From: Synergistales bacterium | GTDB taxonomy: Bacteria > Synergistota > Synergistia > Synergistales > 79-D21 | Length of the DNA stretch: 64,000 bases | Assembly (NCBI GenBank): GCA_036722335.1 | Contig: DAIMJI010000003.1 | Span: 3,781-67,780, forward strand | Direction of reading: 5' to 3' | In this document: positions 1-59,842 of the stretch, piece after piece | Layout: the number at the start of each line of letters is the position of its first letter | Position numbering within the stretch: the first letter of the stretch is position 1 | The notes under the pieces: generated by a model | Databases searched by the model: none | What the model was told of the DNA's origin: nothing | What the model saw: the letters and a program-made list of their open reading frames with translations, nothing else | Position numbers and translations under genes: made by a program

Positions 1-54
1 AGCCACAGAGTTCGGGCTGCTTGCCGCGCTGACTTTGAGCGTTTCCACCGCCAT
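1..54 (-). CDS. spoVS: SpoVS family protein, 5' end only (gene runs off the window start)
   Basis: The ATG at 54 on the minus strand reads MAVETLKVSAASSPNSVA. This matches the conserved SpoVS N-terminus (M-x-V-L-K-V-S-A-x-S-x-P-N-S-V-A). It lies downstream of rny-ymdB as in Bacillus. It is too short for the ORF track. Confidence 0.6.
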   Translation of the reverse strand, partial: MAVETLKVSAASSPNSVA

Positions 55-97
55 GGACCCCACACCTTTCCAGACCGAATCGTCCAAGCAGCCAAAT

Positions 98-877
98 TCA
101 CTCGAGCGGCAGGTTGATCCTTCTTATGTCCAGCGCCCTTCCCGTCTCGTCGTCGATTTCCAGTACCACCGCGTTCAGCCTCGGGCCGTCTTCGCAGACA
201 TCGAACTTTGTCGGCATCCCTGTCAGGAACCGCGGGATAACGCTTTCGGCCCGCATACCGATGACGCCGGCATGTCCGCCCGTCATTCCGCAATCCGTCA
301 GGTAGGCCGTCCCACCGGGAAGAATCGATTCGTCAGCCGTCTGGATATGCGTGTGAGTCCCGATAACGGCCGAAACTTTCCCGTCCAGGTACAGGCCTAG
401 CGCCCTCTTTTCCGATGTCGCTTCGGCATGGATGTCGACAATGACGCATTGAGGCAGTGAACGGTCTTTCAGTATCGAATCCGCCGACCTGAAAGGACAA
501 TCGATCGACGGCATGAAAACCCTTCCCTGCAGGTTCAACACGGCAATTTGCTTGCCGTCCTTTTCCAGGAGAGCCAAGCCTTGTCCCGGACAAGCCGGCG
601 GATAGTTCGCGGGCCTTATGATCCTCTTTTCGCTTCCGAGGATCTCGATGAAATCCTTCTTGTCCCAGACATGATTGCCCGAAGTCAGGCAATCGATTCC
701 GTAACCAAGCATTTCCAGGAAAACCTTCTCGGTCAGCCCAAAGCCGGCAGCCGCGTTTTCACCGTTGGCCAAAACGAAATCGAAAGGCCCGTACTCCCGC
801 CTTACGGACGGCAAAAGGCCCAGAACTACCTTTCTCCCGGTACTTCCAACGATATCCCCGATAAAGAGGATTTTCAT
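98..877 (-). CDS. ymdB: YmdB-family metallophosphoesterase (2',3'-cyclic-nucleotide phosphodiesterase)
   Basis: 259-aa ORF. The N-terminus MKILFIGDIVG...ANGENAAAGFG is typical of TIGR00282/YmdB. It sits directly downstream of rny. Confidence 0.9.
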   Translation of the reverse strand: MKILFIGDIVGSTGRKVVLGLLPSVRREYGPFDFVLANGENAAAGFGLTEKVFLEMLGYGIDCLTSGNHVWDKKDFIEILGSEKRIIRPANYPPACPGQGLALLEKDGKQIAVLNLQGRVFMPSIDCPFRSADSILKDRSLPQCVIVDIHAEATSEKRALGLYLDGKVSAVIGTHTHIQTADESILPGGTAYLTDCGMTGGHAGVIGMRAESVIPRFLTGMPTKFDVCEDGPRLNAVVLEIDDETGRALDIRRINLPLE

Positions 878-884
878 GGGTGCC

Positions 885-2414
885 CTACTTCGCGTACTCG
901 AAGGCCCGTGATTCGCGGATGACCGTCACCTTGATCTGTCCCGGGTATTTCATTTCGTTTTCTACCTTCCGGGCAATGTCGTAGGCCATCTTCTGAATTT
1001 CCCCGTCGTCCGCGATCCCAGGGTTCACCATGATCCGGACTTCACGGCCAGCCTGCATCGCGAAGGCCTTAGTCACGCCGTTGAACGTTTTCGCTATCTG
1101 CTCCAGTTTTTCCAGCCTTTTCACGTAGGCATCAAGGCTTTCCCTGCGGGCTCCGGGCCTGGCAGCGCTCACTGCATCCGCCGCCGCGACGAGGACAGCG
1201 TAAAGGGACTGGGGTTCTTCATCCTCGTGATGGGAAGCGATGGCGTTGACGATTTCCATGCTTTCCCCGTGCCGTCTCGCCAAATCCGCTCCGATCATCG
1301 CATGCGGCCCTTCGACGGCATGGTCAACTGCCTTGCCTATGTCGTGAAGCAGGCCTGCCCGGCGGGCGACAGCCTCGTCAAGCCCCAGTTCGGCCGCCAT
1401 TATTCCCGCGATATGCGCAACCTCGAGGCTGTGGGCAAGGGCGTTCTGGCCGTAGCTGTTCCTGAACCGCAACTGGCCGATGATATTGAGCAATTCCGGG
1501 TGCATATGCTTGACGCCGGCTTCCAGCAAGGCGTTCTCGCCAGCATCCAGGATCATTTCTTCCACATCCTTGCGGGCCTTGTCCACGACCTCTTCGATCC
1601 TCGCGGGGTGTATTCTCCCGTCAACAACCAGCCTTTCCAATGAAAGACGGGCGACTTCCCTGCGAACAGGGTCGAAACTGCTCAGGGCAACCGCTTCCGG
1701 TGTATCATCCACGATAAGGTCGACCCCGGTCATCGTTTCGAACGTGCGGATGTTACGGCCTTCCCTACCGATAATCCTGCCCTTCATTTCATCGGAAGGC
1801 AGGCTAACGACGCTGACGGCGATTTCAGAAGTCTGTTCCACCGCACATCTCTGGATAGCGGTTGTGATATATTCGCGGGCCTTCCGTTCCGATTCCCGCT
1901 TGGCTTTTTCCTCGAGGTCCTTGAGCCGCAGCCCGATCAGATGTCCCGCTTCCTCTTCGACTTCCTTGAGGAGGATTGCCCTGGCCTCTTCTCTCGTCAA
2001 AGCCGCGACTTCCTCCAGCCTCTCGATTTGCTGCTGCTTCAGCGCCTCTATTTCTTCTATCCGGCGTTGTGCGTCTTCCTGCTTGGCCCTCAGGTCCTCT
2101 TCCCTCTTCGAGAGGGATTCGAGCTTCCTGTCGAGATTCTCATCCTTCTGTTCGAGCCGTCGTTCCTGCCTTTGGAGTTCCGCCTTTCGCTCCCGTATTT
2201 CCCTGTCGGCTTCCTGCCTAAGGCGGCTTATCTCTTCCTTGCCCTCAGAGAGCAGTTCCTTCTTTCTCGCTTCCCCTTCGGCTATGGCGTCCTTGACCAG
2301 CTTCTGGGCTTGAGCTCCTGCCCCCTGAAGCCCTCTTTCGTCCTGGTACCTTCGCAGCAAGTATCCGATGGCAAGGCCCAAGGAGACCCCTGCCACTAGC
2401 GCAATGAATGACAT
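885..2414 (-). CDS. rny: Ribonuclease Y
   Basis: 509 aa. It has an N-terminal TM helix, a long E/K/R coiled coil, a KH domain ([15 protein letters not shown]) and an HD domain (LLHDIGKA). Confidence 0.95.
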
Positions 2415-2511
2415 GTCTCTATCACCCCTGTTTGTTTGTCAAAGTTCGGCATGCTGCCTTGTTGTCCATTATTTTTGACAGAACACCGCGTTTTCGAGGG
2501 TATTCTAGCTT

Positions 2512-2949
2512 CTATTCCTCTCCCGGACAAGACGACCGCAGCGCACCCGCGATTTCGGAGGGCCGAAACCCCCTCCGAATGAGCCTGCCGGCAATCCTTC
2601 GATCATCGATACCCGCTCTCCTCCAGTTTCCAATCATTTGAGCGAGCATGTCCGTATCGGTCCTTTCCCGTACCGCCTTCAAGACGATTTTTTCCTCTAC
2701 TCCTCTCCTGCGCAGCTCGTCACGAAGCCTCAACGGCCCCCAGCTCTCATGTCCTTCGACGAAAAGGCGGGCATACAGGTCGTCGTCGAGAAGTCCCGCA
2801 AGCGTAAGTTCACGGACAGCCGTTTCAGCCTCTTCGGTTGACATTCCTCTTGCTTCAAGCCAGTCAGTTGCCTGTTTTGCCGTTTTCGGCCATCGGCCCA
2901 GGATCGCCGAAAGCGAGTTGCGGAGGTCGCCTTTTTCTTTCTTTCCCAT
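2512..2949 (-). CDS. recX: RecX-family regulatory protein
   Basis: 145 aa with repeated helical RecX-like segments (LLDDDLYARLFVE..., LRDELRRRGVEEKIV). Confidence 0.75.
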   Translation of the reverse strand: MGKKEKGDLRNSLSAILGRWPKTAKQATDWLEARGMSTEEAETAVRELTLAGLLDDDLYARLFVEGHESWGPLRLRDELRRRGVEEKIVLKAVRERTDTDMLAQMIGNWRRAGIDDRRIAGRLIRRGFRPSEIAGALRSSCPGEE

Positions 2950-2952
2950 CTG

Positions 2953-5034
2953 TCACCCCATGACCGGGCCGACGTTCATTTCTTCCCGGCATTCATCCTC
3001 AAAGGAGAAAAAGAAGGAGGCCTTGAGCAGGGGATCGTTTTCTCCAAGCTTCCGCACTTCTTCCCTTGCCATTTCAAGCAGGTTCCTGTCCCTGCGGAGG
3101 TCTCCGACACGGAACTCAGTCACCCCGTGCTGCCGGAAACCGCATAGCGCCCCCGGCCCCCTGAACAGGAGATCCGCCTCCGCTACGGCAAGTCCGTCAT
3201 CCGTTCTAGTCATCAATTTCAACCTTTCCAGGGATTCCATGTTTCCCGGCGAGGAGAAAAGGACACATATCCCCTCACGCTCCCCCCTCCCGACACGCCC
3301 TCTCAACTGGTGCAACTGCGAGAGACCGAACCGTTCGGCATCCTCAACGATGATCATCGTGGCCCCGGGAACATCGATACCCACCTCGACAACCGTTGTA
3401 GCGACAAGGATACCCAGCTTTCCCCGTTCAAACATCTGCATCGCTTCAAGTTTTTCCGAGGAGGGCATCTGGCCGTGAACCACGCCCGCGCTTAACTCCG
3501 GCAGCGCTTCCCGGATTTCCTGGAGCCTTGAAAAAACCGATTTGCCCGTTTCAGGCCCTTGCTCCTCCAGTTGCGGGCACACCCAGAGAACCTGGCCCCC
3601 AGAGGAAACTTCCCTCCCTACACGTTCCATCAGCTTTCCCAGGTTTTCCTTTCCGAGGAGGAACGTCCTGGCCTTTTTACGTCCCGGGAGCGGCCCTTCC
3701 AATTTGGTCACGTCAAGTTCCCCGTACGCGGTAAGGGTCAAGGTGCGCGGAATGGGGGTCGCCGACATGACGAGAAGATGGGGAGCCTTGCCCTTTGCCA
3801 GAAGCGCTGCCTTCTGGGCCACTCCGAAGCGGTGCTGTTCGTCTACAATGACCAACCCGAGCCTTTTCCACCCTACCTTGGGCTGGAAAAGCGCATGTGT
3901 CCCGAAGTAAATGCCGGGCTTTCCGTTTCCGGGTGTCCCCTTGGCCTTCCAGCCTCCACTGTTCCCGTTGCTTCCTGCCAATATTCCACAGGCAATCCCT
4001 AGACCCGCCAGAAGCTCCGAGGTCCTTGTGTAATGCTGCCGCGCCAGGACTTCGGTCGGCACAAGGAAAGCAACCTGCTGCCCCGACTCGGCGGCGGCAA
4101 CAGCTGCCCCCAATGCCACGACGGTCTTTCCACTGCCCACTTCCCCGTGGAGCAGCCTGCGCATGGGGATTTCCCTTTCAAGATCACCCCATATCTCCCG
4201 AACCGCGTTCCGCTGCGACAGGGTCAGTTGGTAGGGGAGTTTTTTCACCAGGAACCGGTTCGTAAGATCCCCGCGCCTTATGATAGGGGCTTTACCCTTT
4301 TCTGCCAGTTCGCGCCGCGCCTTCTTGAACTTGACCTGCAGACAGAAAAACTCCTCGAACACGGCCCTTTTCCTTGCCGCTTTCCAGGAGTTTTCGTCCT
4401 TCGGATAATGGAGCCACTCTACCGTCTTCGCCAGGCCAACGAGCTCACAGGCAACGAGAATCCTTTCCGGAAGCGTTTCCGTCAACAGTTTACCCGCCAG
4501 GAGGGAGTCGAAAAGATCTCTTGTCAATTTCCTCAGGAACTTCTGTGTCAGCCCTTTCGACAGCGGGTACAGGGGAAGGATCCCCGCCTGCGGGCGTTCT
4601 TCGCCCAAGAGGATTTCGAGGTCCGGATTGTTCATCTTCCAGCCCTCTTGGCATTGTTCGGCTTTTCCGAAAAGGGCTACCCTGCTTCCCGGCAAAAGTC
4701 CCGGGAAACCCCCTCTCCGGTTGAACCACGAACAGGTCAGCCTTTTTCCCGCTTCCTCAATGACCGCCGTATGGATGGCTAGCCGTCCCCCTCCGGAACG
4801 CAGCGGCTTTTTCGTTGAAGCCGCATGGACAACCTTTCCGCTGACGAGGAGGTTCCTCCCCTCCACCAGGCTGCCAATCGGTGTGACATGCCGCCGGTCC
4901 TCATATTTCCTCGGCAAGTGAAGAAGGATGTCCTTGACCGTCGTCACGCCCAGGGAAGCCAGGGCCTTTTCCCTTACAGGGCCTACCCCCTTAAGGGCTC
5001 CGATCTTGGTTTCGAGCGAGAGGTTTTCCGTCAA
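2953..5034 (-). CDS. recG: ATP-dependent DNA helicase RecG
   Basis: 693 aa. It has a wedge/OB N-terminus, Walker A GEVGSGKT, DEQHRFG, and helicase C motifs (QLHQLRGRVGRG). Confidence 0.95.
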   Translation of the reverse strand: MTENLSLETKIGALKGVGPVREKALASLGVTTVKDILLHLPRKYEDRRHVTPIGSLVEGRNLLVSGKVVHAASTKKPLRSGGGRLAIHTAVIEEAGKRLTCSWFNRRGGFPGLLPGSRVALFGKAEQCQEGWKMNNPDLEILLGEERPQAGILPLYPLSKGLTQKFLRKLTRDLFDSLLAGKLLTETLPERILVACELVGLAKTVEWLHYPKDENSWKAARKRAVFEEFFCLQVKFKKARRELAEKGKAPIIRRGDLTNRFLVKKLPYQLTLSQRNAVREIWGDLEREIPMRRLLHGEVGSGKTVVALGAAVAAAESGQQVAFLVPTEVLARQHYTRTSELLAGLGIACGILAGSNGNSGGWKAKGTPGNGKPGIYFGTHALFQPKVGWKRLGLVIVDEQHRFGVAQKAALLAKGKAPHLLVMSATPIPRTLTLTAYGELDVTKLEGPLPGRKKARTFLLGKENLGKLMERVGREVSSGGQVLWVCPQLEEQGPETGKSVFSRLQEIREALPELSAGVVHGQMPSSEKLEAMQMFERGKLGILVATTVVEVGIDVPGATMIIVEDAERFGLSQLHQLRGRVGRGEREGICVLFSSPGNMESLERLKLMTRTDDGLAVAEADLLFRGPGALCGFRQHGVTEFRVGDLRRDRNLLEMAREEVRKLGENDPLLKASFFFSFEDECREEMNVGPVMG

Positions 5035-5507
5035 TGCGCCTGGGCCGTCTTTCCGCTTTCCGATACAAGCCCTATGAGGGTTTCAAATTTCGATAAGGTC
5101 CCTTTCATTTCAGCGACGAACTGCTGGCGGACCTGCATGAGCCTGGCAAGTTCCCTTTTTTGTTCATCGATTCGTCCCATTGCTTCATCGATTATGGAAC
5201 CGGCCTTGGCTTCCGCTTCTTTCAGGGTCAATTCCGCCTGCTGGGCGGCGGACCTGATTTTTTCCTCCGCGGTCTGCTGGGCGAAAAGTATCGCCTCGTT
5301 AAGCGAGTGCTTGAGTTCGCGGCATTCTTTTATCTGCTCGTCGGCCGTTTCGAGTTTCCTCTCGAGTTCCCGCATCCTTTCAACGTACCCCTGCAAATTC
5401 TCGGCCACCCTGTCGAGGAACTCGTCCACCTCTTCCGGATCGTACCCCCGGAGCGCCCTCTTGAAACCTTGCTGTTGTATGTCCAGAGGAGTCAGCAGAT
5501 CGTTCAT
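5031..5507 (-). CDS. divIVA: DivIVA domain cell-division protein
   Basis: 158 aa. The N-terminus LTPLDIQQQGFKRALRGYDPEEVDEFLD is the DivIVA signature, followed by coiled coil. It overlaps recG by 4 nt. Confidence 0.85.
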   Translation of the reverse strand: MNDLLTPLDIQQQGFKRALRGYDPEEVDEFLDRVAENLQGYVERMRELERKLETADEQIKECRELKHSLNEAILFAQQTAEEKIRSAAQQAELTLKEAEAKAGSIIDEAMGRIDEQKRELARLMQVRQQFVAEMKGTLSKFETLIGLVSESGKTAQAH

Positions 5508-5941
5508 CCTTCATCGACCTCCCCGGGTTCTTCCCGCTCTTTTTCCGTCTCATCCTTGGGCTGTTCTTCCCATGCCTCAAGCAACCTGCTGTGCGGGGTT
5601 GCCAGAAAAACTCCCGGAGCGATCCTTACAACTTTTCCCTGGGTGGAGTAAACGGCACCGCAGAGGAAATCCAGCAGTCCCTGTCCAGGCTCCAGTTCAA
5701 CGGGCCTGAGGTCGAAGATGACCATCTGCCCCATCCTCAGGGCCTCGGCCAACTCGTCCTTCCTGTCAAGAGCGGTCTGCCCGCGTACGAGAAGTATGGC
5801 CGGCTTGCCGATCGCGGGCTGGAAAACCCTTCTTTTTCTTTCTTCCCAGTCGTTCCCGCGTAGATCGACATCTTCTTCGAATTCATCGTCTTCCTCGATC
5901 AAGCCTAGAAATGCCAGGAACCTTTCCCACAAAGCGCTCAC
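5504..5941 (-). CDS. sepF: Cell division protein SepF
   Basis: 145 aa. It has an acidic N-terminus followed by a DUF552 core (VIFDLRPVE...GLLDFLCGAVYSTQGKV). It lies between yggS and divIVA as in Bacillota. Confidence 0.85.
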   Translation of the reverse strand: MSALWERFLAFLGLIEEDDEFEEDVDLRGNDWEERKRRVFQPAIGKPAILLVRGQTALDRKDELAEALRMGQMVIFDLRPVELEPGQGLLDFLCGAVYSTQGKVVRIAPGVFLATPHSRLLEAWEEQPKDETEKEREEPGEVDEG

Positions 5942-6642
5942 ACCTCCCTGTATTCCCTGGGGCCAAAAAGCGCCTGCCCCAAGCGCACGCAGGTGCTCCC
6001 CTGCTCGATAGCCAGCTCGAAATCTCCCGACATTCCCATCGATAATTCCTGCATCCTTATTCCCAAATTGCCCGACACTTTTTCAGCCAATTCCCTCAAA
6101 AGGCAAAAGGACGCGGAAATTTCCTTCTCCCCCCCATGAAGCGGGCCAACCGTCATCAGTCCCCTTACGTTCAAGCTGGGACAATCGAGGAGGACCCTTT
6201 CGACAAGCCCCTCCAGTTCCTCGGGAGCAACCCCATGCTTTGCCGCTTCCCCCGATGTATTGACTTCCACCAGGACAGGCATCACTTGTCCTTTTTCCGA
6301 GAGAATCCGCTCCAGGTCTTCCGCCAGCCCTATACGGTCAAGGGAATCGATTCCCGAAAAAAGGCCAAGCGCTTTCCTCGCCTTGTTTCTCTGCAAGTGC
6401 CCAATCAAACGCCACTCACACGCGAAATCCGGTGACCATTCCCCTATCTTGGATTCCGCCTCCTGGACCCTGTTTTCACCAAAGAGCACGATCCCTTCGC
6501 GCCAGACTTCCCTGATCTCCTCAGGATAACGCGTTTTCGTGACCGCCATCACCGAAATCTCGTCCGATTTCCTTCCGGATTTCAACGCGGCCTCCGAAAT
6601 CCGCCGGCGAATTTCCCTGACCCTTTCCGCTACAGGAATCAC
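5938..6642 (-). CDS. yggS: YggS/YlmE-family pyridoxal-phosphate homeostasis protein
   Basis: 234 aa. It has AVTKTR (the PLP lysine) and HLIGHLQRNK-like motifs. Confidence 0.9.
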   Translation of the reverse strand: MIPVAERVREIRRRISEAALKSGRKSDEISVMAVTKTRYPEEIREVWREGIVLFGENRVQEAESKIGEWSPDFACEWRLIGHLQRNKARKALGLFSGIDSLDRIGLAEDLERILSEKGQVMPVLVEVNTSGEAAKHGVAPEELEGLVERVLLDCPSLNVRGLMTVGPLHGGEKEISASFCLLRELAEKVSGNLGIRMQELSMGMSGDFELAIEQGSTCVRLGQALFGPREYREV

Positions 6643-7619
6643 CAGAGCAAAACCTTCCTTTCCTCCCCCAGGGAAGCCTGGCTCAAAACCAGGTCCCCCG
6701 CCTTCAGGCCTTCCGTCACCAGGAAACGTGACTTGGGCAAGGGCTGTCCCTTTACGCTCCTGTATTCGAGTTTCCCCGCCGAAAACGCGTAGACGCCCAT
6801 CCCACCGTCTCTCTGCATCAGGGCGCTTTCAGGAAGGACCACGCCTTTCTTTTCCCCGTGAAAAAATTCCAGTTCGAGGTTCCGTTTCGATACCATCTTC
6901 GTGGGGAAAAACGGGAGCGTAAAATAGACCTTGGCCTTCGAACCGTAATCCTGTACTGCCCTGATGCCTGCCTTTTTGGGTCTTTCCCCTCCCACCGAGA
7001 ACATGAGGAAGCCTTTGCCCACCTGCCCCCTCGTCACCGCGTCCATGCCTATGTAAGCAATCCCCCGGAGTTCTTGCGGCTGGGGGATGAGCTTTCCAAC
7101 AGGGTTACCCCGGCCTACCCCTTCGCCATCAGCCCTTAAGGAAAGCGCCCCGGATTTCGGCAGTTCGCCGTCTCCTGGCCAAACCTTAGAAAATTCCCAT
7201 TTCCCCTCCATGCCGTCAGTGCCGCAAACGAAGTAGCCTGAAAAAGGCGCCCTGACGACAGACTTCCCATTTCCCGAAAGGATCTCCGCCACGACGTCCC
7301 CTCCGGCAACCCTGACGATTTCCCTCCCCTGGGGATAATGCACGACACCTTCCACGGGAGAGGTCAAAACGGTTTCCCGCCACAGGAGGATTGTGTTTGA
7401 AAGGACCTCATCCTTGACGGTAAGCGGTTCCGCAGCTGAGAACTCGGGCCTGAACGCCCGGAAATTGACCCACCAGCCGGCATAGGATGCAACGCTCCCC
7501 AAAACGATCGCGGCAAGGAGGCCAATATAGAGCAAAGACCTTTGGCTTTTCCTGGCAGGCTTTTCCCGGTTTTCAACTTCCTCCCGCAATCGAGCTCCCC
7601 CCCACTTAACTTTATTCAC
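6639..7619 (-). CDS. Membrane-anchored hypothetical protein with a possible barrel-sandwich (HlyD-like) fold
   Basis: 326 aa with one N-terminal TM helix (LLYIGLLAAIVLGSVASYAGWW) and a beta-rich remainder. It is translationally coupled to nrdJ (8-nt overlap) and yggS (4-nt overlap). The fold guess is by eye only. Confidence 0.5.
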   Translation of the reverse strand: MNKVKWGGARLREEVENREKPARKSQRSLLYIGLLAAIVLGSVASYAGWWVNFRAFRPEFSAAEPLTVKDEVLSNTILLWRETVLTSPVEGVVHYPQGREIVRVAGGDVVAEILSGNGKSVVRAPFSGYFVCGTDGMEGKWEFSKVWPGDGELPKSGALSLRADGEGVGRGNPVGKLIPQPQELRGIAYIGMDAVTRGQVGKGFLMFSVGGERPKKAGIRAVQDYGSKAKVYFTLPFFPTKMVSKRNLELEFFHGEKKGVVLPESALMQRDGGMGVYAFSAGKLEYRSVKGQPLPKSRFLVTEGLKAGDLVLSQASLGEERKVLLW

Positions 7620-9795
7620 ATTTTGAAAAATCGCAACTCTTGCACCTGATGCAGCCTTCGCTGTGAATCAGGGGCGACCCGCAGGAGGGACACATTTCAG
7701 CCGTATCCAGGTCGACCTTGAATCCCCCTGCCCTTTCAAGCCCCCTCGCGATGGCATCCGGCAGGCTAAGGACAATCCCGTCCGCTTCCCAGACCGGCTG
7801 GCTCCCCCCGATACCCTTGAGCTGGCTGACGACCTCTTCAACGGGGACCCCGCTCCTGAGCGCCAGCGAGATCATCCGCCCAAGCGCTTCGGTGTGGGCC
7901 TGGGTATCCTTGCCGGATTTCCCGAGGGTTGCAAAAACCTCGAAAGGCCGGGAATCCATTTCATTCACCGTCAGGTAAAGATTCCCGAAACCTGTCATGA
8001 TTTTTACCGTAGTCCCCCTCAGCAGCGAGGGGCGCCGCCTGGGAAGAGTCTTCCCGTCACGGGGCTCTTCTTCCGCCTTTGCCCTGGAACCGGCATAAAG
8101 CACCTGGCTATCCTTGCACCTGTCCCTGTAAACCGTGATCCCTTTACAGCCGGATTCGTAGGCCAGCCAGAAAGCTTTTCTGACATCTTCCCTCGAGGCT
8201 TCATTTGGCAGGTTGATCGTTTTGCTCACAGCGTTGTCGGTAAAACGCTGGAATGCCGCCTGCATGGCGACGTGGGCCTCGTAAGGGATTTCGTGGGAAG
8301 TGAGGAAGACATTCCTGATATCCTCCGGAACGTCCAGCCCCTCGGCGGAACCCTTCTCGCAAATTGCCTCGATGACGCCGGGGTTCAACGTGCCTCTTTC
8401 CTCAAGCTTCCTGATCAGGATTTCGTTGACCACGGTAAGGGTGTCCGATTCGAAGGCTTTTCTCCTGTACGCAAGGGCATAGACCGGTTCAATGCCGCTG
8501 GAACAGTCGGCGAGTATGGAAAGCGTTCCCGTTGGCGCGATTGTCGTGACGGTGGCGTTCCTCATTGGCCTTCCCTGTAATGCCCAGGAACTTCCTTCCC
8601 AGCTTGGGAAGCAGCCTCTTTCACCTGCCAGTGACTCGCTCGCGGCATGTCCCCTGGCCTGTATGAAGGACATGACCTCTTCTCCCAGGCTTATCGATTC
8701 CCGGCTTCCGTAAGGTATCCCCTTTTCGAACAAGACTTCAGCCCATCCCATTATGCCCAGGCCAACCTTGCGGTTCTGTCTTGTCCTTTCGCGAATCTCG
8801 GGCAGCGGGTAATGGTTCATTTCAATGACATCGTCAAGGAAGCGCACCGCGAGGTCAACCACTTTCCCCAGTTTCTCCCAGTCGAAATTCCCGTTGCCGT
8901 CCAGGAAACGAACAAGGTTCAGGGATCCAAGGTTGCAGCTTTCGTACGGCAACAGGGGCTGCTCGCCACAAGGGTTCGTCGCTTCGATCGGTCCGAGGTG
9001 CGCCGTCGGGTTGTTTTCGTTGATCCGGTCGAGGAACACGATCCCGGGATCTCCCGAAGCCCAGGCTGAATCGACAACCAGGTCGAAGATCTCCGCAGCC
9101 CTGACCTTGGAAACGGTTTCTCCCGTTCGAGGATTCAGGAGTTCCCAGTCCGATCCCACCCTCACGGCTTCCATGAAAGCATCTTGAACGGCAACCGATA
9201 CGTTGAAATTGGCCAGTCTTCCCCTTGTCGTTTTTGCCTTGATGAATTCGATAATGTCCGGGTGTGACACTTCGAGGATGCCCATATTGGCCCCTCGTCT
9301 CGTCCCGCCCTGCTTCACGACTTCGGTGGCATCGTTGAAAAGCTCCAGGAAGGAAACCGGTCCTGACGCCACTCCGGAGGTCGACCTTACCCGGTCTCCC
9401 GCGGGCCTTATCCTCGAGAAGTTGAAACCGGTTCCCCCGCCGCTCTTGTGAACGAGAGCCGTTGCCTTGAGAGCATCGAATATCTCCTCCATGCTGTCCC
9501 CGATGGGCAGGACGAAACAGGCTGACAACTGGCCCAAGGCCGCCCCGGCATTCATAAGCGTCGGTGAATTGGGCAGGAAAAGCAGGTCCGCCATGATATC
9601 GTAGAATTCCCCGGCTCTTTCCTGGGGTTTGCCCCCCCATTTCTCCTCGGCCCGGGCGACAGAAGAAGCAACCCTCAACAGCATTTGCGAGGGGTCTTCC
9701 ACGATTTCTCCATTTTCATTCTTTTTCAGGTATCTTTTTTCAAGCACTTTTACCGCATTTTCTGAAAAACGGGGTTTTTTCTCCTTCGGGGCCAT
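7612..9795 (-). CDS. nrdJ: Adenosylcobalamin-dependent ribonucleoside-triphosphate/diphosphate reductase (class II)
   Basis: 727 aa. It shows class II RNR motifs (NPCGEQPL, TIAPTGT) and a C-terminal Cys cluster (CPSCGSPL...CIRCKSC). Confidence 0.95.
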   Translation of the reverse strand: MAPKEKKPRFSENAVKVLEKRYLKKNENGEIVEDPSQMLLRVASSVARAEEKWGGKPQERAGEFYDIMADLLFLPNSPTLMNAGAALGQLSACFVLPIGDSMEEIFDALKATALVHKSGGGTGFNFSRIRPAGDRVRSTSGVASGPVSFLELFNDATEVVKQGGTRRGANMGILEVSHPDIIEFIKAKTTRGRLANFNVSVAVQDAFMEAVRVGSDWELLNPRTGETVSKVRAAEIFDLVVDSAWASGDPGIVFLDRINENNPTAHLGPIEATNPCGEQPLLPYESCNLGSLNLVRFLDGNGNFDWEKLGKVVDLAVRFLDDVIEMNHYPLPEIRERTRQNRKVGLGIMGWAEVLFEKGIPYGSRESISLGEEVMSFIQARGHAASESLAGERGCFPSWEGSSWALQGRPMRNATVTTIAPTGTLSILADCSSGIEPVYALAYRRKAFESDTLTVVNEILIRKLEERGTLNPGVIEAICEKGSAEGLDVPEDIRNVFLTSHEIPYEAHVAMQAAFQRFTDNAVSKTINLPNEASREDVRKAFWLAYESGCKGITVYRDRCKDSQVLYAGSRAKAEEEPRDGKTLPRRRPSLLRGTTVKIMTGFGNLYLTVNEMDSRPFEVFATLGKSGKDTQAHTEALGRMISLALRSGVPVEEVVSQLKGIGGSQPVWEADGIVLSLPDAIARGLERAGGFKVDLDTAEMCPSCGSPLIHSEGCIRCKSCDFSKCE

Positions 9796-9831
9796 TCGCG
9801 TTTCCTCCTCTAAGGGACTTCATCCTTCCCA

Positions 9832-9860
9832 ATTATCGCCCTGAAGGAACCTTTAATCAA
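9832..9860 (-). promoter_or_regulatory. Candidate sigma-70 promoter of nrdJ (TTGATT-N17-GATAAT on the minus strand)
   Basis: The minus strand reads TTGATTaaaggttccttcagggcGATAAT about 35 nt upstream of the GGAGG SD and the nrdJ ATG. Confidence 0.5.
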
Positions 9861-9867
9861 GTGGACA

Positions 9868-9883
9868 TCACAAGATATGGTGG
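9868..9883 (-). promoter_or_regulatory. NrdR box (promoter-proximal)
   Basis: The plus strand reads tcacaagatatggtgg. This matches 12/16 positions of the NrdR-box palindrome acaCwAtATaTwGtgt. Confidence 0.6.
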
Positions 9884-9898
9884 TTATTCGACCCCCGC

Positions 9899-9914
9899 CC
9901 TCAATATCTTGTGT
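9899..9914 (-). promoter_or_regulatory. NrdR box (distal)
   Basis: The plus strand reads cctcaatatcttgtgt, a 13/16 match to the NrdR-box consensus. Its centre is 31 bp from the proximal box, the typical tandem spacing. Confidence 0.65.
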
Positions 9915-9921
9915 GTTATGG

Positions 9922-10560
9922 TCATAACTGGAGGATTTTCCCCAGCGAGGCAAGATCAGGAACGGTCGCCCAGGCTCCCGCCGCCATGAGATCCGTTTCA
10001 CTATGATTGCCCGAACTGATCCCGACTGCACGAACACCTGCCGCCGCAGCTGTTTTCATGTCAATATCCGTGTCCCCCGCGAAAATCGCGGAGTCTTTAT
10101 CGACCTTGAGGATTTCCAGCCCCAGAAGCAGGGAATCCGGAAAGGGTTTCGGCCTTTCCACGGATTCCAGTCCGACGATCGCCTCGAAGTATTTCTCGAG
10201 TCCAACCGCTTCCACGGACACTCTAGCAAAACGCCTGTTCGTCACGACCCCCTTCCGGATACCCTTGACGGTGAGTTTTTCAAGCAGCGGCACCGTATCC
10301 GGGAAAGGGCGCAAAGCAGCCCTTTCAAGAGGGCTGTAGTGGGTTCTATAGTGTTGCAGCCACTCGGGTCGAAAATCTCCCCATAGAGTATTCCAGGCGG
10401 CTTCTATCGGAAGGCCAATCGTCGACAGAACCTGCTCCCTTGTAACCTCTGCCAATTGCAGGTCTTTTGCCATGCCGTTCATGCAGGCGGTGATCGCGTA
10501 GCTGCTGTCTATGAGTGTCATGTCGAAATCAAAAAGAATCGCGCGAATTTCACTTGTCAT
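9922..10560 (-). CDS. HAD-superfamily hydrolase (phosphoglycolate phosphatase / PpaX-like)
   Basis: 212 aa with HAD motif I (ILFDFDMTLIDS) and motif IV (FAGDTDIDM). Confidence 0.85.
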   Translation of the reverse strand: MTSEIRAILFDFDMTLIDSSYAITACMNGMAKDLQLAEVTREQVLSTIGLPIEAAWNTLWGDFRPEWLQHYRTHYSPLERAALRPFPDTVPLLEKLTVKGIRKGVVTNRRFARVSVEAVGLEKYFEAIVGLESVERPKPFPDSLLLGLEILKVDKDSAIFAGDTDIDMKTAAAAGVRAVGISSGNHSETDLMAAGAWATVPDLASLGKILQL

Positions 10561-11759
10561 GGGACAACCTCCATCAGGAATCCTTTCAGGTAGTCGCTTT
10601 CAGGGAAATTAAGGCTTACCGGGTGATCCGGCGGCTGGTGGATTTCAGCCAGGATGCGGCCCGATTTCTTAACGTCCCGTGCTGCCGCGGCAAGAGTCTC
10701 CAGGAGGCTATCCCTCCCGAAAGCCTGGCTGCAGGAAAAGAAAAGCATGGCCCCGCCGGGAGCCAGCATCCTGAATCCGCGTACCGCCAATTCCTTGTAG
10801 CCCCTCCTGGCGCTTTCGACCTGTTTCCTGGATGGCGCAAAAGGCGGAGGGTCCATCACGATCAAGTCGAAGGAACTCCCTTTTTCACTGAGTTCTTTGA
10901 GGCGATCGAAAACATTGCACTCTTCCAGCGAAAGATTCCCTTTCCCCGCAAGGCCGTTCAGCAGCAGGTTTCTTCTCGCCATTTCGAGCGCTTCTGCCGA
11001 CTGGTCCAGCGCCAGCACATCCTTTGCGCCCCAGTTCAATGCGTGGAGGGAGAAGTTGCCTGCGTAGGAAAAGGCGTCGAGGACCCTGGCGCCGCTGCAG
11101 AATGGCCTTGTTTCCCGGGGAAACTTCCTGACATCGAGATATAGACCTGTCTTCTGGCCTCTGAGGGGGTCGACGAAACTGCGAACATCCCCCGTCAGCA
11201 CGGAAAGATCTTCCAAAGCCTCATTCCTGCCCACCAGCACCTTCTTTTCCCGAGGGATGCCTTCCGCTTCGAGGAACCTACCTTCATTCCTCAAAATGAC
11301 CGTTTCTACACCGTCTTCCTGCCTGATCAGCTCCGCAAGGGAATCAACCATCCTGTACATTCCTGCGCAGGAAGTCTGCATGACTGCCACCGGCCCGTAA
11401 CGGTCCACCACGAGTCCCGGCAAGCCGTCAGCTTCCCCGTGGATCCACCTGAAGGCATCCTCTCCCTTTTCAAGGAACCTGGACCGTGAATATTTCGCAT
11501 CCTGGATCCTTTTTTCGAAAAGTTTCCCGATATCCGGCCGTTCCGCTCCCCAGGAAAGGAGCCTCACGCAGAGGGATGCACCCGGGCTAAACAGGCCCCA
11601 TCCCAGGGTTTCTCCTCTCTTCCCTGCGACCGGGACCAATGCCCCGTTTTCCTCTTCCATGGGTAGCCGGTTGAAATCCCCCCGGAAGAGCCAGGGATGC
11701 CTGGCCTGCATCCTTTCCAGGCCCTTTTCCCCTAATGTTGCCGATGGCCGGGTTTTCAC
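10557..11759 (-). CDS. PUA-domain class I SAM-dependent rRNA (cytosine-C5) methyltransferase, RlmI-like
   Basis: 400 aa. It has a PUA-like N-terminus followed by a SAM-binding region (VLDAFSYAGNFSL, DLIVMDPPPFA). Confidence 0.8.
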   Translation of the reverse strand: MKTRPSATLGEKGLERMQARHPWLFRGDFNRLPMEEENGALVPVAGKRGETLGWGLFSPGASLCVRLLSWGAERPDIGKLFEKRIQDAKYSRSRFLEKGEDAFRWIHGEADGLPGLVVDRYGPVAVMQTSCAGMYRMVDSLAELIRQEDGVETVILRNEGRFLEAEGIPREKKVLVGRNEALEDLSVLTGDVRSFVDPLRGQKTGLYLDVRKFPRETRPFCSGARVLDAFSYAGNFSLHALNWGAKDVLALDQSAEALEMARRNLLLNGLAGKGNLSLEECNVFDRLKELSEKGSSFDLIVMDPPPFAPSRKQVESARRGYKELAVRGFRMLAPGGAMLFFSCSQAFGRDSLLETLAAAARDVKKSGRILAEIHQPPDHPVSLNFPESDYLKGFLMEVVP

Positions 11760-28565: not shown

Positions 28566-28569
28566 GAAA

Positions 28570-55757: not shown

Positions 55758-56105
55758 CTAGAGCGTGAATGTTTTCTTCAAGCTCCCGAAGATGTTGCAG
55801 TCCGCCTCGACCTGTATCGTCTGTCCCTTCTGCAGCCCTTCCACGGGTATTTCAACATCCAGCCCGGTCTTGTCCGTTTGTGTTCCGAAGCTCTTTTCGG
55901 CAAGCTGCTGGCCGTCCTTGAATATGACAACCCTGTTTATGAAATGTTTTGCAGGATCGTTTACGGTATGAGAAACCTGCACCCTGATCTTCCCTTCGGG
56001 CATCAGGGAAACGATTAGTGACCCGGGGGGATGGGCAAGTGCCTTCCCTGTCGTCAGGACGAGGAAAAATCCCACACCGATAAGCCACCAGGCAACCTTT
56101 TTCAT
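55758..56105 (-). CDS. Small secreted beta-sandwich protein with superoxide-reductase/SoxZ-like motifs
   Basis: 115 aa from MKKVAWWLIGVGFFLVLTTGKALA|HPPG, with a GAGGAGG SD 9 nt upstream. The mature part carries H...SHTVNDPAKHFI...DCNIFGSL. The resemblance was judged by eye only. Confidence 0.6.
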   Translation of the reverse strand: MKKVAWWLIGVGFFLVLTTGKALAHPPGSLIVSLMPEGKIRVQVSHTVNDPAKHFINRVVIFKDGQQLAEKSFGTQTDKTGLDVEIPVEGLQKGQTIQVEADCNIFGSLKKTFTL

Positions 56106-56130: not shown

Positions 56131-56610
56131 CTACGTCAATTCTCCCTTTCTGGCTTTCCCAAGTGTTTCCAGCACCTCATCGGCATGACCCTTCACTTTG
56201 ACCGAAGGCCAGGCCCATCTTACCATCCCTTCGGGGTCGATAAGGAAAGTCGACCTGACGATCCCCTCGTATTCCTTTCCGTACATCTTTTTGCTGCCCC
56301 AGGCCCCATAAGCTTTTATCGCCTGGTGATCGGGATCGCTCAGCAGCAAGAGCCCCAGGTTGGCCTTCCTTGCGAAGTTTTCGTGCGATTTTACCGAATC
56401 TGCGCTAACCCCTGCCACGACCGCTTCTTGCGACTCTATTTCGGGCAACCTGTCCGAAAAAGCCTTCGCTTCCTCGGTTCACCCACTTGTTCCGTCCTTG
56501 GGATAAAAAAACAGGATAAGCCATTTCCCGCGGAAGTCCGAAAGGGAAAACCGTTTATTGCCCAGTCCCTCTAGATCAAATTCGGCAGCCCGGTCCCCTT
56601 TTCCCAGCAT
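56131..56610 (-). CDS. Selenocysteine-containing peroxiredoxin (BCP/PrxQ type; TGA at 56479..56481 decoded as Sec)
   Basis: The ORF track shows only 56131..56448. The same frame continues upstream through a single TGA: MLGKGDRAAEFDLEGLGNKRFSLSDFRGKWLILFFYPKDGTSG[TGA]TEEAKAFSDRLPEIESQ... The TGA aligns with the peroxidatic Cys of BCP (FYPKAMTPGCT). The ATG at 56610 has a GGGAG SD (alternative ATG at 56619). A hairpin follows the TGA. Confidence 0.8.
56430..56469 (-). promoter_or_regulatory. Candidate bacterial SECIS stem-loop
   Basis: It starts 9 nt after the UGA: GCGA-AGG-CU-U-UUUCGG-A-C-AGGUU-G-C-CCGAAA-U-AG-AG-UCGC. This gives about 13 bp in three helical segments and an apical loop containing GGU about 31 nt from the UGA. 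Confidence 0.6.
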
Positions 56611-56640
56611 CTGTCTCATCTCCCTTTTCCCAAGGCTGTT

Positions 56641-57234
56641 TCATTCCAGGTGCCGGTCGGATGTCGATTGGATGCCCGTGTTCTTCGAGTCCTCAACACA
56701 TAGCGCCTTGCCTTGCAGGTCTACCATACACTGCTTCGCCGGGACATTTCCCTCGACATCGCTGGCGTGGAGTTCCTTGATAAAATCGACGATTTCCTTC
56801 AGGTCGGGAACCTTTGACAAGGGGTAGGTCTTGACGAAGAGTACGACCCCATGTTCGTTTAGCAGGACGTTCGCGCGTTCTGAGAAGCCTTCCTTCCTCC
56901 TGAAAAGCCCCATGTCGGCCGCCACTTTACCGTGAGGCCAGAAGTCGGACAGGATCCGCAGCCTTTCGAGCCCGAGGTCGTTTGCCCATGCCGCCTTGCT
57001 TGGTACTGAATCGACACTTATCCCAACCGGTACCGTGTTTAACCCGTAAAAGACATCCATGTCCCGTTCCAGGCACCGCATCTGGTCGGCGCAAACGGGC
57101 GTCCACGCCAGAGGGTGGAACGAAAGTAGGACCCTTTTCCCCTTTTGGTCCGAGAGTTTCCAGTCGTTCTTGTCCTGGTCCTGGAGGGAGAAATCCTCCG
57201 GGATGTCTCCCAGGTTGAGCTTACTGGCTTCCAT
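56641..57234 (-). CDS. Peroxiredoxin (AhpC/TSA family, Cys-type) with a C-terminal extension
   Basis: 197 aa from MEASKLNLGD, with an AAGGAGGG SD. The catalytic motif is FHPLAWTPVC. An extra tail of about 45 aa contains two Cys. Confidence 0.85.
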   Translation of the reverse strand: MEASKLNLGDIPEDFSLQDQDKNDWKLSDQKGKRVLLSFHPLAWTPVCADQMRCLERDMDVFYGLNTVPVGISVDSVPSKAAWANDLGLERLRILSDFWPHGKVAADMGLFRRKEGFSERANVLLNEHGVVLFVKTYPLSKVPDLKEIVDFIKELHASDVEGNVPAKQCMVDLQGKALCVEDSKNTGIQSTSDRHLE

Positions 57235-57260: not shown

Positions 57261-58127
57261 TCATTTGAGGGTTTCAATGAAGCCTGCGATCCTATCGAAC
57301 GGTGGCGTCCTCTCCCAAAGGGCTTCCTTCGTGTCGCGGTAGGCTCCTAGTTGCTCTTCGAAAGTCCTGCGGTCCGTCGGTTCCCTGTAAATGATTCCCA
57401 GAGGGTAAGGCGGTCCGGAGAGAGCCAGTTCCATCGCCTTTTTCCTGTCGCCTTCCTCCGGCCTGGAGCGTTCAACAAAAACGGTGTTTTCCCTGAACCA
57501 CTTGTAGGTGTTAACCTTGTTGAAGGAAACACAGGGCTGGAAGATATCCACCAGCGCGTATCCCTTGTGTGAGATGGCTTCCATGATGATCTTCCGCGTC
57601 ATATCCGGCTCCCCGGAAAAGGTCCTCGCCACGAAAGTCGCTCCCTGGGAAATCGCGAGAGCGATAGGATTCAGGGGTTCCGAGAAAACCCCTTCCACCT
57701 GCACGGGGGTTTTCAAGCCGACCGGGCTAGTTGGCGAAGCCTGCCCCTTGGTTAGACCATAAACCATGTTGTTGTGAACGAGGTTCGTCAGGTCGGGGTT
57801 CCGGCGTATCGCGTGCAGGAGGTGGTTTCCCCCTTCACCGTACATGTCCCCGTCCCCCCCTATCGCGATAACCGTAAGGCCCGGGTTCGCGGCTTTGACC
57901 CCTGTCGCCACGGGCAAAGCCCTTCCGTGCAGCCCCTGGATGATATGGCCTTTCATGAAATGAGGGGTCTTCGCCGCCTGGCCTATCCCCGAAACGAGGA
58001 CTACATCCCGCGGAGTGAGCCCCAACTCTGCAAGGGCTTCCTTCAGGGCCGACAGTATCTGGAAGTTCCCGCACCCCGGGCACCATGACAAGTCGATATG
58101 TTCCAAATCATAATCCCGTGCGTTCAT
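57261..58127 (-). CDS. korB: 2-oxoacid:ferredoxin oxidoreductase beta subunit (TPP-binding)
   Basis: 288 aa from MNARDYDLEHIDLSWCPGCGNF, with a GDGD TPP motif. It has an ATGA overlap with the korA stop. The ORF-track start at 58427 is an extension. Confidence 0.9.
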   Translation of the reverse strand: MNARDYDLEHIDLSWCPGCGNFQILSALKEALAELGLTPRDVVLVSGIGQAAKTPHFMKGHIIQGLHGRALPVATGVKAANPGLTVIAIGGDGDMYGEGGNHLLHAIRRNPDLTNLVHNNMVYGLTKGQASPTSPVGLKTPVQVEGVFSEPLNPIALAISQGATFVARTFSGEPDMTRKIIMEAISHKGYALVDIFQPCVSFNKVNTYKWFRENTVFVERSRPEEGDRKKAMELALSGPPYPLGIIYREPTDRRTFEEQLGAYRDTKEALWERTPPFDRIAGFIETLK

Positions 58128-59842
58128 TGGGCCACGCCTCCTGCAAGAAGTCCGTCGAGCCCTGCGGTCACTTCCTCGACCGAAAACTGGTGTCCCTTGA
58201 AGTTTAGCAAGAGATGATCCGCCTTCCTTCCCGTAGACAGCCTGAGAAGACGAGCCAGTTGCCCCGTCGAGTTCCCCTCCACGACGACCACTTTCCCGGC
58301 TTTGGCCAACAGGGAATGGGTCATGGGATGAAGGGGAAAGACCTGCCTGAAATGGACAAGCGCGATATCTCCCTTCCCGAGATTGGCGATCGCTTCCTTG
58401 ACGATGGGGCCAGTCGAACCCCAGCAAAAAACAACCGGGTTGCCAACCGGTTCTCCAAGGACTGTCGGAGGAACCGCAACCTCCTCCAGGAGCCTCAGCT
58501 TTGACAGTCTTTTCAACTGCATCTTCTCGCGCATTTCAAAATCCTCTTCGATATGCCCGCTTTCGTCATGTTCGTGGCTGTCTATTCGGACAAGCCCTGT
58601 ACCGTATCCGAAAATTCCGCGCGGGGAAACCCCGTTCTCCGACAGCCTGTATCGAAGGTAATCCGACCCGGTTTCAACGAAATGATGCTTAAACCCTTCC
58701 GGTGCGACCGGCAGTTCCTCTTCTTCAAAAATGCTGTCCAGCAGGTATTCATCCGTCAGCAGGAAAACGGGCACCTGGAACCGGTCTGCCCAGTCGAATG
58801 CCAGCCTGGAAAGCTCGAAGGCTTCTTTAGCGTTCCCGGGAGAAAGAATCACTCGCGGGAATTCACCATGCCCCGCGTAAAGGGCCAGTTCGAGGTCTGC
58901 CTGCTCGGTACGCGTCGCCATTCCGGTCGCCGGACCCGGTCTTTGCCCGAGGTGAATCACCAGGGGAATCTCGGTGACTGCCGAAAGGCTTATTCCCTCC
59001 TCCATGAGGGCAAATCCTCCCCCGGATGTCGTCGCCATGGCCCTCGCACCGGCGGCCCAAGCTCCCAAAGCCATGTTCACCGCCGAAATTTCGTCTTCGA
59101 CCTGTTCCACCGCAATCCCGAACCGGGAGGCGTTCTGAGCCATGAAAGCCAGCACCCCCGACCCCGGGGACATGGGATACGCCGTCACGAAGTTGCATCC
59201 TCCCGCAAGGGCTCCCAGAGAGACCGCCTTGTGCCCATCCATTATCACCGGCCTTCGGCCAGGTTCCTTCACGGGCATCCCCAGCCGGACAAGGCCCTTT
59301 TCAATAAATTGGCCTCCCTCAAGGTACCCTCTTTCCGCGGAGAGAAGATTCCGTTCAAGAATGTCCGCCTTTGCTCCAAAGCGGTCCCTGATCAACTCTT
59401 CGAGCAGGGAGTAGTGAACTCCAAGGAGGGCACAAACCAACCCCGCCGCGACGCTGTTGGCTGTTACCGGGCCCCCCGCTTGCCTTGCGATTTCAAGAAA
59501 GGGGGCATTCACAAAACGGCAGGGGTGCCCTTCAAATTCATCTCTTAGCTCTTCCCTGTCACCCAGGACGAACGTATCCGCACCCAGCCTCTTCCAAATG
59601 TTCCTCCTTAGCCCGCCGTTCAAGGGAACGAGGAGGTCTATCCTGTCAACGAAGGCTTCGACGCGTTTATCCGCGATCCTGATCTCCGTGGAATTGCTTC
59701 CACCCCTGACCCTGGACATCGATTCCTTTGTCGCGAAAACGTGGAAACCCGAACGCCCCAAAGCCTTGACTAGCAAGCTTTCAACCGTCTGTACCCCTTG
59801 CCCGGCCGCTCCGCAAAGCACGATGGAAAGTTCACTGCTCAT
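58124..59842 (-). CDS. korA: 2-oxoacid:ferredoxin oxidoreductase alpha subunit (gamma-alpha fusion type)
   Basis: 572 aa. The N-terminus is a gamma-like domain (IVLCGAAGQGVQT) followed by the alpha domain (AYPMSPGS). There is no delta/ferredoxin subunit gene adjacent. Confidence 0.9.
   Translation of the reverse strand: MSSELSIVLCGAAGQGVQTVESLLVKALGRSGFHVFATKESMSRVRGGSNSTEIRIADKRVEAFVDRIDLLVPLNGGLRRNIWKRLGADTFVLGDREELRDEFEGHPCRFVNAPFLEIARQAGGPVTANSVAAGLVCALLGVHYSLLEELIRDRFGAKADILERNLLSAERGYLEGGQFIEKGLVRLGMPVKEPGRRPVIMDGHKAVSLGALAGGCNFVTAYPMSPGSGVLAFMAQNASRFGIAVEQVEDEISAVNMALGAWAAGARAMATTSGGGFALMEEGISLSAVTEIPLVIHLGQRPGPATGMATRTEQADLELALYAGHGEFPRVILSPGNAKEAFELSRLAFDWADRFQVPVFLLTDEYLLDSIFEEEELPVAPEGFKHHFVETGSDYLRYRLSENGVSPRGIFGYGTGLVRIDSHEHDESGHIEEDFEMREKMQLKRLSKLRLLEEVAVPPTVLGEPVGNPVVFCWGSTGPIVKEAIANLGKGDIALVHFRQVFPLHPMTHSLLAKAGKVVVVEGNSTGQLARLLRLSTGRKADHLLLNFKGHQFSVEEVTAGLDGLLAGGVAQ

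Follow-up and report, generated by a model that had tools for sequence, protein, structure and literature searches.

A UGA codon at the peroxidatic position of a split BCP/PrxQ-type peroxiredoxin gene in a Synergistales bacterium is probably read as selenocysteine

Can a peroxiredoxin (Prx) gene that is cut in two by an in-frame TGA still encode a whole enzyme? The question is raised by a locus in a Synergistales bacterium, within a 64,000-nt stretch of contig DAIMJI010000003.1 (hereafter, the window, meaning the whole stretch that was analyzed). A mechanical list of open reading frames (ORFs) gives two same-frame pieces at this locus, 56131..56448 (−, 105 aa, opening with TTG) and 56479..56619 (−, 46 aa, opening with ATG). 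A first-pass annotation had taken the 105-aa piece to be the only listed fragment of a longer Prx, and we found that the 46-aa piece lies upstream of it in frame, with one TGA between them. Translation of 56619..56131 (−) gave 162 codons interrupted by one stop, in the context ...FFYPKDGTSG*TEEAKAF..., and the frame is closed by TAG at 56133..56131 (−). The internal stop reads TGA (56481..56479, −) and alone interrupts the 162-codon read, so that, as had been claimed, no frameshift is needed to join the halves. We propose that 56610..56131 (−) encodes a 159-aa BCP/PrxQ-type Prx whose peroxidatic residue is selenocysteine (Sec), placed at UGA 56481..56479 through the usual bacterial pathway, a reading to which we give a probability of roughly 0.9.

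Where does translation begin? A Shine-Dalgarno (SD)-like AAGGGAG can be read at 56620..56626 (−), with a 9-nt spacer to the ATG at 56610. An alternative ATG at 56619, upstream of this one, directly abuts AAGGGAG and would yield a product of 162 aa. In the public gene calls, the 43-aa N-terminal piece starts at ATG 56610. On the basis of the SD spacing of this ATG and the start chosen by the callers, we take the product to be 159 aa long, residue 44 being Sec, and the complete coding sequence to be 56131..56610 (−), an assignment that draws on translation, Pfam, and orthologues. The SD-preceded start and the joined length of 159 aa given in the first-pass annotation are both borne out. It had also foreseen that automated callers would treat the gene as truncated or as a pseudogene. 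Pieces of 43 aa and 105 aa were indeed what the callers reported in every public assembly examined, and at least 22 recorded contigs contain the 105-aa fragment.

To which protein family do the joined halves belong? Pfam AhpC-TSA (PF00578) matched across the TGA, over residues 8 to 135 of the 162-codon read (E = 4.6e-37; 127 bits against a cutoff of 26). The TGA column corresponded to the invariant Cys of GCT in 20 of the 20 full-length homologues aligned, so the Cys/Sec pairing that had been suggested for this column is seen in every one. The hallmark residues P40, T44, and R122 (162-codon numbering), the last within VRSTF, were invariant in the 21-sequence alignment. In the same numbering, the P-x3-T-x2-C/U motif is present as P40-K-D-G-T44-S-G-U47 (PKDGTSGU), with the TGA at its peroxidatic position. 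Among solved structures, the best PDB relatives were BCPs (E = 1e-36), and the GCT Cys of Xanthomonas BCP aligned with the TGA. These matches uphold the initial assignment of a BCP/PrxQ-type Prx with TGA at the peroxidatic Cys. When U was replaced by C for scoring, the best NCBIfam models were PrxQ and Bcp, and neither equivalog cutoff was reached (149.4 bits versus 260 for PrxQ NF053650; 128.4 bits versus 140 for Bcp PRK09437). Judged by profile scores, the predicted protein is BCP-like, yet an equivalog of neither curated model.

The best overall sequence relatives are Cys-type BCP/PrxQ proteins (E. coli Bcp, PRK09437; Xanthomonas campestris BCP, PDB 3gkk/5iph), and the best metagenomic Cys homologues reach up to 61% identity. 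The window Prx shares with the Cys-type proteins the active-site Thr and Arg and the length, and it differs in the predicted Sec for Cys at the peroxidatic position (Cp) and in having no resolving Cys at +5 or in alpha-3. Translation gives Lys at position +5 from the TGA, the BCP resolving-Cys position, just as the first reading had it, and the alpha-3 position reads NF-A-RK in the window Prx versus NF-C-AK in X. campestris BCP. Beyond that claim, the Cys count of the whole product is zero. Because the protein is without any Cys, an external thiol would have to recycle the Sec, which agrees with the one-Sec (1-Sec) mechanism that had been implied from the Lys.

We then asked about the TGA itself. 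A sequencing or assembly error, with TGC or TGT as the true codon, draws only on the prior that MAG-derived sequence can hold errors. Ten contigs, assembled independently in different studies and by different pipelines (NCBI, ENA, and Logan), carry the gene with the same TGA at 99.8 to 100% identity, and the error reading, which the first-pass annotation had itself raised, is refuted. Alternatively, a TGC/TGT-to-TGA nonsense mutation might have inactivated a Cys-Prx and left the ORF pieces as decaying remnants. Such a pseudogene would match the two fragments in the gene calls; a change from TGY to TGA takes one base, and since an intact second Prx adjoins, the loss might be tolerated. Against this, seven orthologues keep the TGA at 65 to 68% amino acid identity, with synonymous sites saturated. 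Two of them are Synergistota MAGs, the closest TGA-bearing genes among the motif matches listed (L099, 68%; L109, 66%), and five more are metagenomic (L130 to L134, 65 to 67%); the next-best relatives are Cys forms. At this codon, the metagenomic relatives examined have either TGA or TGY, and close orthologues conserve the Cys/Sec column on which the first reading had been staked. In comparisons with five clade orthologues, pN was 0.19 to 0.25 versus a saturated pS of 0.55 to 0.81 on both sides of the TGA, which indicates that both halves are kept as protein with the TGA unchanged. The Prx frame has no other stops or frameshifts.

The same codon is also conserved far beyond this clade. Scanning species-representative genomes with the degenerate motif YPKDxTxG-TGA-TxEA gave at least 119 genomes with a strict match, a number that is a lower bound. 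Among the motif matches listed, at least 80 codons were open after the TGA in 116 of 120 instances, and the hosts included Geobacter, Syntrophobacter, Binatia, Gemmatimonadaceae, Acidobacteriota, Dehalococcoidia, Eremiobacterota, and several Bacillota. It is vanishingly improbable that a stray stop fell by chance on exactly the Cp column and then persisted in more than 119 species. With selection on both halves and these long open frames beyond the TGA, conservation effectively refutes the pseudogene.

Might the two pieces be made as separate polypeptides, of 43 aa and 105 aa, the second from the internal TTG, that assemble as a split Prx without the catalytic residue? The TTG at 56448 does open the 105-aa ORF. 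However, it is not conserved as a start, being ATG (Met) in L099 and L109 but CTG in L134, and no SD precedes it. Furthermore, ten codons separate the TGA from the TTG, and their protein sequence is conserved; we also know of no functional Prx that lacks a peroxidatic Cys or Sec. We consider separate expression of the halves very improbable. Nor is TGA a reassigned codon, because it ends 26 of the window's 43 family-supported genes, the Prx gene immediately upstream among them; the first-pass annotation was right that TGA is otherwise a true stop in this genome.

If a whole Prx is made across the UGA, is Sec the residue that is inserted? The codon could instead be decoded by near-cognate readthrough (Trp, Cys, or Arg) or by a local recoding unrelated to SelB, with a non-Sec or low-yield product. 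The Sec machinery was not found close by, which leaves some room for such decoding. Across the 64-kb window and a further ∼10 kb of flanking sequence, family searches and a tRNA search detected none of selA, selB, selC, and selD, ARAGORN found no tRNA genes and no tRNA-Sec in the window and flanks, and NCBIfam annotation of ∼50 window ORFs, examined for selA, selB, and selD, showed housekeeping genes only. Two longer public contigs overlap window positions 1..10877 at 99.9% identity and run 9.9 kb past the left edge, where they carry grdX, trx, grdE, grdA, and grdB. In-frame TGAs interrupt grdA (ECFV-TGA-TAAGAMD) and grdB (TST-TGA-GTCTRCGA), which sit 7.7 to 9.1 kb past the window edge and are both split by callers. 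These contexts are the classical motifs of the glycine-reductase selenoproteins. Since two such genes, each with a UGA, share a contig with the Prx gene, a genome without selABCD is unlikely, and decoding of the Prx UGA as another amino acid is correspondingly disfavored. A peroxiredoxin requires Cys or Sec at the peroxidatic position; with Trp, Arg, or Gly there, catalysis would be lost, which is at odds with the conserved active-site residues. The phylum also speaks for Sec. Its use was reported in 13 of 14 sequenced Synergistetes (PMC5029168), and Synergistetes are described as selenoprotein-rich (PMC5029168, PMC9312934, PMC13188914).

Two further searches concerned other Sec-related genes at the locus. 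One AIRS/AIRS_C gene, which lies just beyond the window, was considered as a SelD cut at a Sec codon and was rejected, as its C-terminal PRIC and hypC-hypD neighbors identify it as HypE. A scan of the window for other single-TGA read-through frames returned 117 candidates, nearly all of them adjacent or overlapping genes or antisense frames, and none besides the Prx lay in a redox-motif context.

Does the mRNA hold a SECIS downstream of the UGA, as had been proposed for 56400..56500? With the U of UGA counted as nt 1, two hairpins are predicted in this region, and they compete for nt 25 to 28. The first, H1 (56454..56477, −; nt 5 to 28), begins 1 nt past the TGA, has a 10-bp stem, a GAAG loop, and an MFE of −18.1 kcal/mol, and dominates the full-length fold of the window sequence (P = 0.99). 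The second, H2 (56441..56457, −; nt 25 to 41), has a 7-bp stem and an apical triloop GGU (56450..56448), can extend to nt 18 to 50 (56464..56432), and has a probability of 0.01 in the free-RNA fold of the window sequence. Comparison of eight clade sequences revealed that the upper 5 bp of H1 (56472..56459) were 100% paired, with one AU/GC swap, and that its lower stem was broken in four to five of the eight orthologues. For H2, 98.2% of the cells were paired in these sequences, with GGA, GUU, or GUC as the triloop of the orthologues; pair 29-37 is AU in four of the eight, GC in three, and an A·C mismatch in the window. The bSECIS consensus calls for a small apical loop with G and then G/U in its first two positions, 16 to 37 nt from the UGA (PMC13188914). 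The H2 loop, 28 nt from the UGA, fits this consensus; the H1 loop, at only 11 nt, falls outside the range, and on this count and for its broken lower stem, H1 was downgraded as a SECIS.

When the UGA is in the A site, the first 13 to 15 nt are expected to be buried in the ribosome. Upon removal of nt 1 to 13 (to 15) from the fold, H2 formed in all clade members, the window included, with P of ∼1, and the extended window hairpin (nt 18 to 50) reached −10.6 kcal/mol. Because H2 forms once the nucleotides expected to be buried are removed, these models favor it as the best SECIS candidate and the likelier SelB site, with H1 as a competing or auxiliary structure. The region singled out for a SECIS by the first reading therefore stands, and within it, the comparative data favor H2 (56457..56441) over the stronger H1 that abuts the TGA.

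How strong is the signal for structure after this codon? In a synonymous-codon permutation, the window region after the UGA gave z = −1.9 (p = 0.04), and clade members L130 to L134 gave z of about −3. The same permutation gave a mean z of −1.18 for 116 Sec genes among the motif matches listed, with 31% at p ≤ 0.05, and a mean z of −0.42 for 57 Cys homologues, with 11% at p ≤ 0.05. The structure signal is much stronger in TGA than in Cys forms and modest for the window sequence alone. The dinucleotide-shuffle z of the window hairpin was only about −1.5, and the covariation comes from eight sequences, four of them closely related, with weak shuffle controls (43/500 for H2 alone; 6/500 for the two-hairpin model). 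The SECIS geometry of the organism's own glycine-reductase genes did not discriminate between H1 and H2: the grdB TGA is followed by a clean stem of 7 bp whose GGA loop occupies nt 22 to 24, no simple hairpin follows the grdA TGA, and neither z was significant. A gathering scan of the whole window against Rfam returned no match, which says little because we know of no bacterial SECIS model there. Decoding of the UGA as a residue other than Sec can thus point to an H2 that is imperfect in the window and to the permissiveness of bacterial SECIS prediction. However, the excess of structure in TGA over Cys forms counts against it, as do the active site, grdA and grdB, and the phylum, and we regard it as highly unlikely. 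Insertion of Sec remains our preferred reading.

How does this gene relate to known selenoproteins? The bacterial selenoprotein family "Prx, PF00578, TxxU" is well established (PMC13188914, PMC1794560, PMC5029168). Zhang et al. (2006) described 12 Prx members and five Cys-to-Sec conversions (PMC1794560), and Peng et al. (2016) described 91 Prx genes in 78 organisms, which placed Prx seventh among bacterial selenoprotein families (PMC5029168). Given this rank and the 119 or more species-representative genomes that match the TGA motif, the first-pass annotation was mistaken in calling Sec-containing Prx a rare family. The Prx (TxxU) family, found for example in Geobacter metallireducens (WP_011365628.1), Syntrophobacter, Syntrophus, and Anaeromyxobacter, is the right comparator for the window Prx, with which it shares the Pfam domain, the PxxxTxxU motif, the peroxidatic UGA, and the BCP size of ∼150 to 160 aa. 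MAGs of Geobacter and Syntrophobacter are among the motif matches listed. The example that had been named instead, PrxU of Eubacterium (Peptoclostridium) acidaminophilum (Söhling et al. 2001, as cited in PMC13188914), is the wrong comparator. PrxU resembles the window Prx in having Sec at the peroxidatic position, and its host is an amino-acid-fermenting anaerobe with glycine reductase selenoproteins, but it belongs to another Prx subfamily: its model NF040737 (peroxi_PrxU) has 233 positions versus 159 aa here and scored 53.2 bits, short of the cutoff of 270. The Prx-like thiol:disulfide oxidoreductase selenoproteins (PF00578, UxxC/UxxU) share the AhpC/TSA fold and come from anaerobes of the same kinds (PMC13188914). 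Their redox motif is a thioredoxin-like UxxC, whereas the window Prx has the peroxidatic TxxU. A literature search on selenocysteine together with bacterioferritin comigratory found nothing relevant.

Within the Sec-BCPs, the Synergistota clade stands somewhat apart. The window Prx has only 46 to 54% identity with the other Sec-BCPs examined, below its best Cys homologues (61%), and this greater closeness to Cys homologues is consistent with independent, repeated Cys-to-Sec switches. Among the matches listed, most other Sec-BCPs have a hairpin at nt 12 to 33 with a GUU loop at nt 21 to 23, whereas the corresponding G-U/G-G triloop of the Synergistota clade lies ∼11 nt further downstream, with an extra hairpin before it. 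The clade is also Cys-free, whereas Sec-BCP relatives among the matches listed carry Cys at +5 in 50 of 115 cases. A 1-Sec design is nonetheless not unusual, since 30 of 115 Sec-BCPs among these matches were Cys-free.

The genes around the Sec-Prx are conserved as well. The string runs HMA, 2-oxoacid:ferredoxin oxidoreductase (OFOR) alpha, OFOR beta, Cys-Prx, Sec-Prx, and a 115-aa protein, and the whole order is common to L099 and L109, a synteny that places the window in Synergistota. OFOR alpha (58124..59842, −; NCBIfam TIGR03710, 566 bits) and OFOR beta (57261..58127, −; TIGR02177, 339 bits) were both assigned above cutoff and by synteny. Together (57261..59842, −) they head the same-strand gene string that contains the Sec-Prx. 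The upstream Cys-Prx (56641..57234, −; 197 aa) has the motif PLAWTPVCADQMRC, with Cys-x4-Cys, and matches Pfam AhpC-TSA at E = 1.7e-24; it is syntenic in L099 and L109 at 71 to 74% identity, and its TGA stop is 31 nt ahead of ATG 56610. The downstream 115-aa protein (55758..56105, −) has an N-terminal signal-peptide-like segment and is syntenic in the same two MAGs. Its match to the superoxide-reductase (SOR; desulfoferrodoxin) domain PF01880 (E = 0.011; 16.7 bits, below the 22.2 cutoff) suggests a weak resemblance. Cys-Prx, Sec-Prx, and an SOR-like protein behind OFOR genes suggest an oxidative-stress module in an anaerobe.

From sequence, we infer a route that runs from Sec insertion and a SelB-binding hairpin to a reductant and a physiological role. 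A hairpin of the mRNA immediately 3' of the UGA, likeliest H2, would recruit SelB with its Sec-tRNA(Sec). As the UGA enters the A site, the 5' arm of H1 would lie within the mRNA channel of the ribosome, so that H1 would be melted and H2 freed. By Prx chemistry, the selenolate would attack the peroxide and become a selenenic acid, which would depend on an external thiol for its recycling, with thioredoxin, glutaredoxin, and perhaps the neighboring Cys-Prx as candidates. On the simplest reading of the conserved Synergistota string with OFOR, Cys-Prx, Sec-Prx, and the SOR-like protein, the enzyme would serve in oxidative-stress protection in an anaerobe.

A more elaborate version of this route can be imagined, in which recoding and catalysis in the Synergistota clade are both nonstandard. 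A conserved "decoy" hairpin at the UGA would be melted by the ribosome to free a downstream SECIS with a GGU/GUU loop, a switch with two states by which Sec insertion could be tuned, and the Cys-free 1-Sec Prx would be resolved by the co-transcribed Cys-x4-Cys Prx, in a hetero-Prx Se-S relay that guards the oxygen-sensitive OFOR of the same operon. We consider this version unlikely and prefer insertion of Sec by the standard route.

The window gene is an unannotated member of an already known, widespread selenoprotein family, and the result is an annotation fix rather than a discovery. It opens no new question: Sec-Prx has been known since 2001 and ranks high among bacterial selenoproteins in frequency, and the Synergistota were already recognized as rich in Sec. 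The fix matters in that every public copy examined is split into 43 aa and 105 aa, so that the peroxide-defense repertoire and the selenoproteome are under-counted, and the same misannotation touches well over a hundred species. Of minor interest are the SECIS-like hairpin of the clade, placed unlike that of other Sec-BCPs, as would be consistent with repeated independent Cys-to-Sec conversions, and the trio of Cys-Prx, Sec-Prx, and SOR-like genes that is conserved behind the OFOR operon.

The selenocysteine-containing peroxiredoxin (Sec-Prx) is not the only gene with a Sec codon on this contig. On L210, a public contig that is the same as that of the window and runs past its left edge, a glycine reductase cluster (grdX-trx-grdE-grdA-grdB, L210:16372-20229) lies 5.5 to 9.4 kb beyond window position 1. 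Both grdA and grdB carry a Sec codon as an in-frame TGA (L210 18547-18549 and 19966-19968, respectively), and each appears as two pieces in the gene-caller output. Just past the same edge are the hydrogenase maturation genes hypC-hypD-hypE (L210:11135-13432, minus strand). The AIRS-domain gene of this group was considered as SelD and ruled out, as its C-terminal PRIC identifies it as HypE.

What are the immediate neighbors of the Sec-Prx? Directly upstream is a second peroxiredoxin of 197 amino acids (56641-57234, minus strand), with the motif PLAWTPVC-ADQM-RC (Cys-x4-Cys) and a C-terminal extension of ∼50 amino acids that contains two further Cys. This protein could be a partner of the Cys-free Sec-Prx or a peroxidase parallel to it. 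On the other side, a 115-amino-acid protein with a hydrophobic, signal-like N-terminal segment (55758-56105, minus strand) gave a subthreshold hit for PF01880, the desulfoferrodoxin (superoxide reductase) domain (E = 0.011). Compared with the superoxide reductase active-site motif CN[IL]HG, which holds the last His ligand, its CNIFG appears to keep C-N-I and to replace that His with Phe. This protein is also conserved beside the Sec-Prx orthologues of two Synergistota metagenome-assembled genomes (L099 and L109). Farther upstream, beyond the 2-oxoacid:ferredoxin oxidoreductase genes, a gene for a small heavy-metal-associated (HMA, CxxC) protein is followed by a divergently oriented ORF for a 154-amino-acid membrane-anchored product and by a gene for a DsbD_2-family protein (59882-61321 for all three). 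Together, these three genes suggest that the peroxiredoxin operon is set in a thiol/metal redox neighborhood.

Among the Sec-BCP matches listed (L011 to L129), at least two hairpin classes were found. Counting the U of UGA as nt 1, the stem in most of them spans nt 12-33, and the loop, GUU or AGUUYC, lies at nt 20-25. In a minority, including L015, L053, L073, L084, L098, L102, and the Synergistota clade, the stem comes earlier and the loop falls at nt 15-18. This division fits a SECIS that arose independently more than once. One Binatia metagenome-assembled genome carries two Sec-BCP paralogues within 8 kb (L054:3066-3106 and 7153-7193). In a metagenomic relative (L153:1630), Ala replaces the otherwise invariant Thr after the TGA (G-U-AKEA), and excess structure downstream of the TGA is absent (z = +0.38); this could be a pseudogene or a gene with its SECIS arranged differently.

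Elsewhere in the window, three long ORFs of 718 (16556-18712, plus strand), 621 (18814-20679, minus strand), and 669 (26679-28688, minus strand) amino acids matched none of the NCBIfam models at cutoffs of E ≤ 1e-20 to 1e-25. Two ribonucleotide reductase types are encoded: the B12-dependent class II enzyme NrdJ (7612-9795, minus strand) and the anaerobic class III enzyme with its activase, NrdD/NrdG (42004-44905, minus strand).
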